A stretch of 43,160 bases of DNA from a virus (taxonomy: Duplodnaviria; Heunggongvirae; Uroviricota; Caudoviricetes), in the IMG/VR virus record IMGVR_UViG_3300014682_000024, positions 1-43,160 of that record, one strand, 5' to 3'. This document shows, in pieces, positions 40,432 through 40,591 of this stretch. The translations under genes were made by a program, and so were the position numbers. Each line of letters begins with the position of its first letter. The first letter of the stretch is position 1. Under the pieces are notes generated by a model that was not told where the DNA came from, made no database searches, and was given only the letters and a program-made list of their open reading frames with translations.

Positions 40432-40591
40432 GAATTTTGTGATGCGGTGAATGCGGCTCAGCGCACGCGGAACAGTTAAAAAGGCCAGTTGACTTCCGTA
40501 TTGGTTCTTATGGGTGGGTTCTCTGTATCCGGCGTTAATTGTTAACTGGTTAACGTCACCTGGAGGCACCAGGCACCGCATCACAAAATTC
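40432..40591. repeat. 18-bp perfect inverted repeat pair (gaattttgtgatgcggtg / caccgcatcacaaaattc) flanking 124 bp
   Basis: Read directly; the right arm ends 6 nt before the SD of the ORF at 40610. Confidence 0.6.

Follow-up and report, generated by a model that had tools for sequence, protein, structure and literature searches.

Why should a perfect inverted repeat, its arms more than 100 base pairs (bp) apart, lie directly upstream of a pair of small open reading frames (ORFs) in a prophage? The question is raised by the IMG/VR virus record IMGVR_UViG_3300014682_000024 (Caudoviricetes), the whole 43,160 nucleotides (nt) of which, analysed here, are referred to as the window. An initial annotation, made from the sequence alone, suggested that the arms might pair in RNA and sequester a translation start, act as paired operators in DNA, or form the ends of a miniature inserted element. 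The window is an Escherichia coli lambdoid prophage with a Qin-like dicBF operon, and the ORF pair directly downstream of the repeat, correctly placed in that annotation, consists of dicB and a ydfD-like DUF1482 gene. The repeat is orthologous to the long-known RNase III processing stem of this operon; it is real and functional, yet largely explained already by the known site in E. coli K-12. Apparently new is the finding that a conserved domain with a pseudoknot, a sister of the STnc100/PasD RNAs scoring below the Rfam threshold, is closed by the RNase III stem and recurs as a leader in several enterobacterial genera, where the phage genes downstream of it are unrelated, small and often toxic.

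The arms are fully complementary over 19 nt, one more than the 18 bp first described as perfect, and the 124 bp between them were counted correctly; the right arm does precede the Shine-Dalgarno (SD) sequence of dicB, at a distance of 5 nt instead of 6 nt. In RNA, a G40430.U40593 wobble and an A40429-U40594 pair lengthen the stem, termed P1, to 21 bp. The folding of the leader and the search for the repeat elsewhere that had been proposed as checks were both carried out. The first returned this 21-bp stem, with a predicted free energy of -33 kcal/mol as an isolated hairpin, in a 281-nt region the fold of which stands out from shuffled versions (z = -5.5). The second, allowing up to three mismatches to the 19-mer, found two sites in the window, which are the two arms themselves, where 0.03 would be expected by chance; two matches were reached in none of 100 shuffles, and the 18-mer is likewise not dispersed, the arms being its only sites in the window.

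The arms are the 5' and 3' strands of P1, which closes a multi-helix, pseudoknotted RNA domain of approximately 145 nt (Table 1). Homologues were collected by scanning for the motif CACCNGGAGGCACCNGGCACC, which gave at least 120 loci in viral contigs, several with two or three copies, and 32 loci in genomes; among the viral matches listed there were 114 unique copies, 86 of which remained after trimming to the core. The elements follow a common order from 5' to 3': P1 (..GGUG / CACC..), AAU, P2 with its ..GCG loop, a junction helix, a variable insert, P4, UCACC, P5 and the 3' strand of P1. The helices were recovered unguided by RNAalifold from 53 non-redundant copies, and covariation supports every one of them. 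In a joint alignment of these 53 copies, the window included, 93.6% of the cells assigned to helices were paired, compared with 75.6% after shuffling and around 40% with slid partners, and the family-wide covariation score of 0.49, against 0.16, was reached in none of 500 shuffles.

Individual helices behave in the same manner. All three variable P1 positions beside the invariant GGUG/CACC show compensatory changes. P2 is 98.9% paired, with CG and GC pairs swapped between sub-families, and P5 is 100% paired, with its middle pair swapping between G-C and U-A and a consensus of CCNGG-AGGCA-CCNGG among the matches listed. The nested palindrome reported within the enclosed segment (cgttaa...ttaacg) is real and corresponds to helix P4 (40532-40538 / 40550-40556). 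Within the sub-family to which the window belongs, 11 of the 21 P1 pairs show double changes and the covariation of the stem is 0.237, compared with at most 0.07 for slid partners; 89% of cells are paired although four rows are one column off register, which makes these P1 counts conservative.

The pseudoknot was assessed without an alignment, because its strands were out of register in one MAFFT alignment, as was the outer P1 of the Klebsiella type in another. A complementary run of at least 6 bp between the P4 loop and the upstream strand was present in 84% of the 86 copies among the matches listed, compared with 10% when loops were shuffled and 18% when they were swapped between copies. The pairing is maintained by more than 20 sequence combinations and reaches 99.4% within the window's sub-family. 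From the covarying helices and the pseudoknot it follows that the 124-nt segment enclosed by the arms is an RNA domain, both conserved and pseudoknotted.

Table 1. Features of the dicBF region of the window, with the elements of the RNA domain in 5' to 3' order.
Feature	Position	Strand	Pairing, size or basis
Upstream hairpin	40182-40249	+	Arms 40182-40194 / 40237-40249, 13 nt, 92% complementary; counterpart of published K-12 RNase III site
DicF-like small RNA with intrinsic terminator	40371-40426	+	Terminator hairpin 40389-40416, U-run 40422-40426; Rfam RF00039; aligns to K-12 dicF
P1, 5' strand (left arm)	40429-40449	+	21 pairs, 11 changed on both sides
Left arm, perfect part, TGAATTTTGTGATGCGGTG	40431-40449	+	19 nt
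Invariant junction AAU	40450-40452	+	Precedes P2
P2 hairpin, GCGGC-UCAGC-GC-A-CGC	40453-40468	+	Loop with family-conserved ..GCG; RNAalifold, pair counts
Junction helix, 5' strand GGA	40469-40471	+	Partner UCC 40528-40530; 2/3 pairs changed on both sides
Pseudoknot, 5' strand CAGUUAA	40473-40479	+	Partner is P4 loop UUAACUG, 40542-40548; complementarity test
Variable insert	40480-40527	+	Hairpins unlike in length and sequence among homologues; indels in homologue alignments
P4 hairpin, GCGUUAA / UUAACGU	40532-40556	+	Loop carries pseudoknot 3' strand; 5/7 pairs changed on both sides
P5 hairpin, CCUGG-AGGCA-CCAGG	40559-40573	+	Near-invariant signature CACCNGGAGGCACCNGGCACC; pair counts
P1, 3' strand (right arm)	40574-40594	+	Pairs with 40429-40449
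Right arm, perfect part, CACCGCATCACAAAATTCA	40574-40592	+	19 nt
dicB SD, GAGGA	40598-40602	+	Outside perfect stem; weakly pairable with DicF-terminator U-tract
dicB, 62 amino acid cell-division inhibitor	40610-40798	+	ORF list; dicB annotation in matching E. coli genomes
ydfD-like DUF1482 gene	40795-40998	+	Overlaps dicB stop codon; ORF list; annotation in E. coli matches

The pattern of substitution shows that the repeat is a feature of RNA, on the + strand and in the sense of dicB. The arms of the K-12 Qin copy differ at two positions, which create two adjacent G.U pairs on the + strand only; copies of the kilR type carry a bulged A and an extra G.U pair in P1; and across the registered rows there are 28 G.U pairs as against 5 A.C combinations. 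The domain has the orientation of the downstream gene in every annotated context. Covariation, G.U pairs and bulges in homologues thus bear out the first part of the RNA proposal, the pairing of the arms, although its second part, the sequestration of the translation start, is mostly not supported, as described below.

Comparison with Rfam identifies the domain as a divergent relative of the prophage RNA family STnc100/PasD. A scan of the whole window at gathering thresholds gave no match at the repeat, and a permissive scan placed the full length of STnc100 (RF02076) on 40419-40642, its outer helix coinciding with the arms, at 34.0 bits (E 2.3e-5), short of the gathering threshold of 47. At threshold, RF02076 recognises sub-families with CCCCC...GGGG (52-132 bits) and does not match the window's sub-family, the kilR leaders, the copies in P7 and a Klebsiella phage, or two further sub-types. 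The window copy scores 105.8 bits with a purpose-built model, in the training set of which it was included. The structure and signatures common to STnc100 (outer helix, P2, penultimate hairpin and CACCNGGAGGCACCNGGCACC) are all present in the window copy, and the 3' tail and terminator that mark stand-alone members are not. The overall architecture and the signatures GGUGAAU, the P2 ..GCG loop and UCACCNGGAGGCACCNGGCACC are held in common with STnc100, PasD and EcOnc27. By contrast, the window P2 reads GCGGC...GCGC where STnc100 has the swapped pairs CCCCC...GGGG, its P1 is 21 bp long rather than approximately 8, and it forms a leader within an operon, lacking a promoter, seed-bearing tail and terminator of its own, whereas STnc100 is a stand-alone, Hfq-binding RNA.

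Canonical STnc100 has been described as a prophage small RNA (sRNA) without an assigned function; one example lies 75 nt downstream of stx2B and overlaps the Hfq-bound EcOnc27, and common ancestry with PasD has recently been proposed. No link between STnc100 and dicB or kilR was found in the literature examined, and the leader is described neither in the OxyS/NusG/kilR paper nor in the O157 machine-learning paper.

A second divergent STnc100-like domain is found elsewhere in the window (27612-27750, - strand), just downstream of two transfer RNA (tRNA) genes (27958-28108, - strand). It has a P1 of GAGGCG/CGCCUC, a P2 with a ..GUGCG.. loop and a P5 of UCGGG-AGGCA-CCCGA, is followed about 55 nt later by a strong intrinsic terminator (~27566-27590), and looks like a stand-alone copy of the sRNA type. 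It scores 25 bits (E ~8e-6) with the purpose-built model, has no Rfam match at threshold, and its fold alone is not significant (z = -1.25). Family members often adjoin phage tRNA genes: besides the segment 27612-28108 of this window, the ban operon of P7 (L005, 1205-2935) has the order tRNA-Asn, tRNA-Thr, domain, tciABC, tRNA-Ile, and at two other loci (L008 and L017) tRNAs are followed by one to five STnc100 copies. This neighbourhood suggests co-transcription and shared processing.

The length of P1 was compared between contexts using an anchored stem measure together with individually read copies; minimum free energy (MFE) folds of 30-nt flanks were too noisy for this purpose, AT-rich flanks being paired, as was automatic calling of downstream ORFs, which picked up the ATG inside CACCAUGC. 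In leaders that precede dicB, kilR or another small ORF, a long P1 (approximately 18-28 bp) is found repeatedly, formed by at least five unrelated arm sequences. Among the viral matches listed, nearly all copies combining a DicF-type terminator with dicB or kilR have a P1 of at least 21 bp, which in DicF-linked copies can be extended to around 28 bp with wobbles and one bulge, and the 88 copies unlinked to DicF, dicB or kilR, many of them of the stand-alone sRNA type, have a median P1 of 8 bp and a maximum of 12 bp. True compensatory double changes occur inside the long stem at two loci (L059 and L066). In species-representative genomes, the long stems of Klebsiella (CAGGCUUUGCAAUACGGUG / CACCGCAUUGCAAAGCCUG), Raoultella (21 bp), Citrobacter (two versions of 20 bp each) and Enterobacter (6 bp, an internal loop, then 11 bp) are unrelated in sequence and all lie upstream of small ORFs.

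The function of the long stem is indicated by K-12, in which an RNase III-dependent, 72-nt form of DicF has been published (Faubladier, Cam & Bouche 1990, as reported by two citing sources). The repeat occupies the same position in both prophages, between the DicF terminator and dicB, and hence lies in the read-through transcript. With dicF at 1649382-1649434 of the K-12 MG1655 chromosome, the 72-nt end reported by these sources falls at 1649453, position 10 of the left arm (1649444-1649462), which is equivalent to 40440|40441 in the window, mid-duplex. Applying the rule of a 2-nt 3' overhang to this end places a second cut at 40584|40585. The pairs between the two putative cuts, G40439-C40584 and U40440-A40583, are as the cleavage rules established in vivo predict, both being paired and at least one a G-C. 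The same rules give a duplex of approximately 20-22 bp, a near-perfect duplex of about 21 bp being the classical RNase III substrate, and at 21 bp P1 has the length expected for cleavage of both strands. The other published RNase III end in K-12, the 5' end of a 190-nt DicF precursor, corresponds to ~40244, in the right arm of the upstream hairpin; as this end also falls in an inverted-repeat stem, it supports the mapping approach.

Genome-wide data from K-12 are in agreement. Table S1 of Gordon 2017 lists a site at 1649470, labelled 'dicF-dicB' and flagged as known, with 26 reads in delta-rnc versus 0 and 0 in wild type, 8 nt interior to the K-12 left arm. A kilR-sieB site at 1418510 is also listed; as this maps just upstream of KilS and not in P1, it is the upstream site of processing that it backs. 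In the genome-wide studies of RNase III, the dicF-dicB site receives no discussion in the main text.

The best explanation of the repeat is therefore that it is P1 of an STnc100-like domain which is cut by RNase III in the read-through transcript, separating DicF from the dicB mRNA, and we consider this probable. The long P1, a near-perfect duplex of about 20 bp, is a substrate for the double-strand-specific enzyme, which would be expected to cleave each strand close to the centre of the duplex, at about 40440/40441 and 40584/40585. Such cleavage would give DicF an alternative 3' end further downstream, which in K-12 is that of the 72-nt species, detach a dicB-ydfD message with a 5'-monophosphate leader of approximately 26 nt, and release positions 40441-40584 as a structured RNA of about 144 nt with a residual P1 of 9 bp. 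As this residual stem has the P1 length of stand-alone members, the long stem has the appearance of an adaptor for excision, fitted to a domain that in other settings begins at a promoter. We infer that cleavage affects dicB expression, either activating the message through freeing the SD or destabilising it through the 5'-monophosphate and the unstructured leader.

A number of observations weigh against this explanation. The figure of 72 nt derives from gel sizing as relayed by secondary sources, such that the cut may be a few nt off, and the shorter DicF of the window would give a species of around 60 nt instead. The delta-rnc RNA sequencing has low counts and coarse resolution, in a list with many weak sites, and the experimental data on RNase III stem from the K-12 orthologue rather than from this prophage. 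No RNA of about 144 nt has been reported from this spot in the literature. Some leader-type copies, namely those upstream of P7 tciA, at a terB-type locus (L141) and in a Klebsiella phage, have a short P1 of 9-10 bp, and two A.C mismatches interrupt the long stem of a DicF-linked kil copy in phage POCJ13; RNase III excision is accordingly not universal in the family. Finally, processing accounts for the long stem and not for the strong conservation of the interior.

A broader reading addresses that interior. It holds that the 124 nt, far from being a passive loop, are a distinct and unannotated branch of a phage-wide RNA superfamily (STnc100/PasD/dicB-kilR leaders) with an invariant core and a covarying pseudoknot, excised from early-operon transcripts by RNase III via a lineage-specific long stem and possessing an activity of its own, such as binding of a host or phage protein or of a small molecule, or catalysis, that gates toxic cell-division inhibitors. 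The module would have been recruited repeatedly before small genes unrelated to one another (dicB, kilR, tciA/terB and further short ORFs) in Escherichia, Shigella, Citrobacter, Klebsiella, Raoultella, Enterobacter and P1-like phages. We put this forward as speculation, on balance unlikely to be correct as a whole.

Similarly doubtful as an account of the repeat is the idea that the stem and its extension hide the dicB ribosome-binding site until they are opened or cut, a mechanism compatible with processing by RNase III. For the window as for K-12, MFE and partition-function calculations pair the SD (GAGGA) with a U-tract/CUUU just 5' of the stem; the modelled probability of the SD being unpaired rises from 0.16-0.22 in the unprocessed transcript to 0.79 after the putative cut, and a small local hairpin also covers the AUG. 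However, both the SD and the AUG lie outside the perfect arms, and the extension reaching the SD consists of U.G and U-A pairs that are missing from the centroid structure. Among the 12 contexts tested, comparable masking and unmasking was predicted in those of dicB only, and not for kilR or eight other leaders, including those that share the long stem, so it was rejected as a general mechanism. As the SD sequence is constrained in any case, covariation cannot test masking; the models leave it as a possible dicB-specific addition, and not as the reason for the repeat.

It is improbable that the domain is primarily a trans-acting sRNA gene, like STnc100, PasD and EcOnc27, with its place before dicB incidental. 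Canonical members have promoter-like sequences and terminators of their own and overlap Hfq-bound sRNAs, and the second copy in this window also has a terminator. Yet a scan of 40300-40700 found no promoter-like site and a single terminator-like one, that of DicF, which lies upstream, such that neither signal of its own flanks the copy at 40429-40594. Furthermore, the 3' tail with seed and terminator typical of sRNA-type copies is missing, the SD and dicB following within 6 nt, and a 2023 study detected no additional promoter inside the dicBF operon.

Still less likely is an action on RNA polymerase, as a terminator, an attenuator or a put-like processive antiterminator. This interpretation might be invited by the size and stability of the nascent-RNA structure, by its place in an early operon of a phage and by the leaky terminator immediately before it, the read-through of which feeds dicB, but the 3' arm is followed by UUGUUGAGGA, without the U-run of an intrinsic terminator, and the terminator scan was negative for it. 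Being downstream of the DicF terminator, the domain cannot suppress it; stand-alone copies precede terminators that evidently work, and no search revealed any similarity to put RNAs.

The two DNA-based proposals can be largely discarded. With a 19-bp inverted repeat that is perfect and an intergenic region that looks regulatory, the arms, 143 bp apart, might be a recombination site or the paired half-sites of an operator bound by a phage regulator, but this is highly improbable, given that substitutions in homologues maintain G.U pairs, which are mismatches in DNA symmetry, that kilR-type copies have a bulged base in one arm, that the known DicA operators are upstream, at dicBp, and that the arms differ wholly in sequence between genera while remaining complementary, which is the signature of a helix and not of a protein-recognition sequence. 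Equally remote is the insertion of a Miniature Inverted-repeat Transposable Element (MITE) upstream of dicB. The inverted ends, the short interior without coding sequence and the many prophage copies would suit such an element. Yet the flanks (TAAAG / TTGTT) contain no target-site duplication, the window has a single copy, and copies are found in a syntenic position, with an sRNA terminator on one side and a small gene on the other. Moreover, the ends are not conserved but covary, in most family members they are only 8 bp long, and selection acts on the structure of the interior. All three of these readings (operator, MITE and terminator) were rejected, on the basis of covarying arms with G.U pairs and bulges, the lack of a duplication and the lack of a U-run, respectively.

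A 750-nt segment containing the repeat is 98% identical to E. coli STEC005, where the ORF pair is likewise annotated as dicB and a ydfD-like DUF1482 gene, and approximately 88% identical to the K-12 Qin prophage, and was matched in 4730 of 5426 complete E. coli genomes, at a median of two places per genome. The gene order is dicC (- strand), dicA, ydfA, ydfB, a ydfC-like gene, a long non-coding stretch, dicB and the ydfD-like gene. Within the non-coding stretch, positions 40100-40370 are nearly identical to K-12. Between the ydfC-like gene and the DicF precursor region is an antisense ORF of 65 amino acids (39859-40056, - strand), the segment containing which is not in K-12 Qin and is present but unannotated in STEC005; in Rac-SA53 an antisense ORF, 'rac10', has a similar location. 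Further upstream, the window also contains a sok antitoxin RNA of a hok/sok-type toxin-antitoxin locus (33072-33245, - strand), at 98 bits, well over the Rfam threshold.

The sRNA upstream of the repeat is a DicF-like variant, comparable to KilS of the Rac prophage. In the permissive Rfam scan it matched RF00039 at 40371-40421 with 34.1 bits (E 2.4e-5), where the gathering score is 48. Relative to K-12 DicF, the terminator hairpin is retained, the 5' part, which includes the target-pairing seed, differs and is 10 nt shorter, and the variant as a whole is about 12 nt shorter; its targets, like those of KilS, may not be the same as those of K-12 DicF. The window also departs from K-12 Qin in the domain itself, its variable insert being 14 nt longer.

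The same cassette is found in the Rac prophage of K-12 (L160, NC_000913.3 1418230-1418502, - strand), where KilS and its terminator are followed by the domain with a long P1 and then by kilR, a small FtsZ-inhibitor gene. KilS itself is a DicF-like sRNA verified by northern blotting and described as lying in the "kilR 5' UTR" (untranslated region). The distance from the 3' end of the sRNA to the start codon is approximately 175 nt in both K-12 copies. By contrast with the window, kilR is unrelated to dicB, and in the extension of the Rac stem the U-tract pairs with an A-run and not with the SD. In K-12, the extended tail of an sRNA of the 72-nt type would complement the new 5' end of the toxin mRNA after cleavage. 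Mechanistically, though not by homology, the arrangement resembles the RNase III stems of ribosomal RNA precursors, the phage T7 early mRNA and the lambda N leader, in which a duplex of around 20 bp formed from flanking sequences is cut on both strands and separates functional RNAs; here, the piece cut out would be a small pseudoknotted domain, flanked by an sRNA and the mRNA of a toxin.

Although toxic, the prophage products DicF and DicB can also benefit the host, through effects including control of cell division, metabolism, phage resistance and the virulence of enterohaemorrhagic E. coli, and the partition of the operon transcript between DicF and dicB is only partly understood. In the literature examined the K-12 RNase III site is not tied to a conserved structured domain, and the old observation of a 72-nt DicF here gains a structural basis, an RNase III stem that closes an STnc100-like domain. 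STnc100 is among the most often annotated yet functionally blank enterobacterial RNAs. The collection defines a large set of its relatives that current Rfam-based annotation misses, and the leader-type branch, with its built-in excision stem, offers a tractable handle on the role of the STnc100 family.

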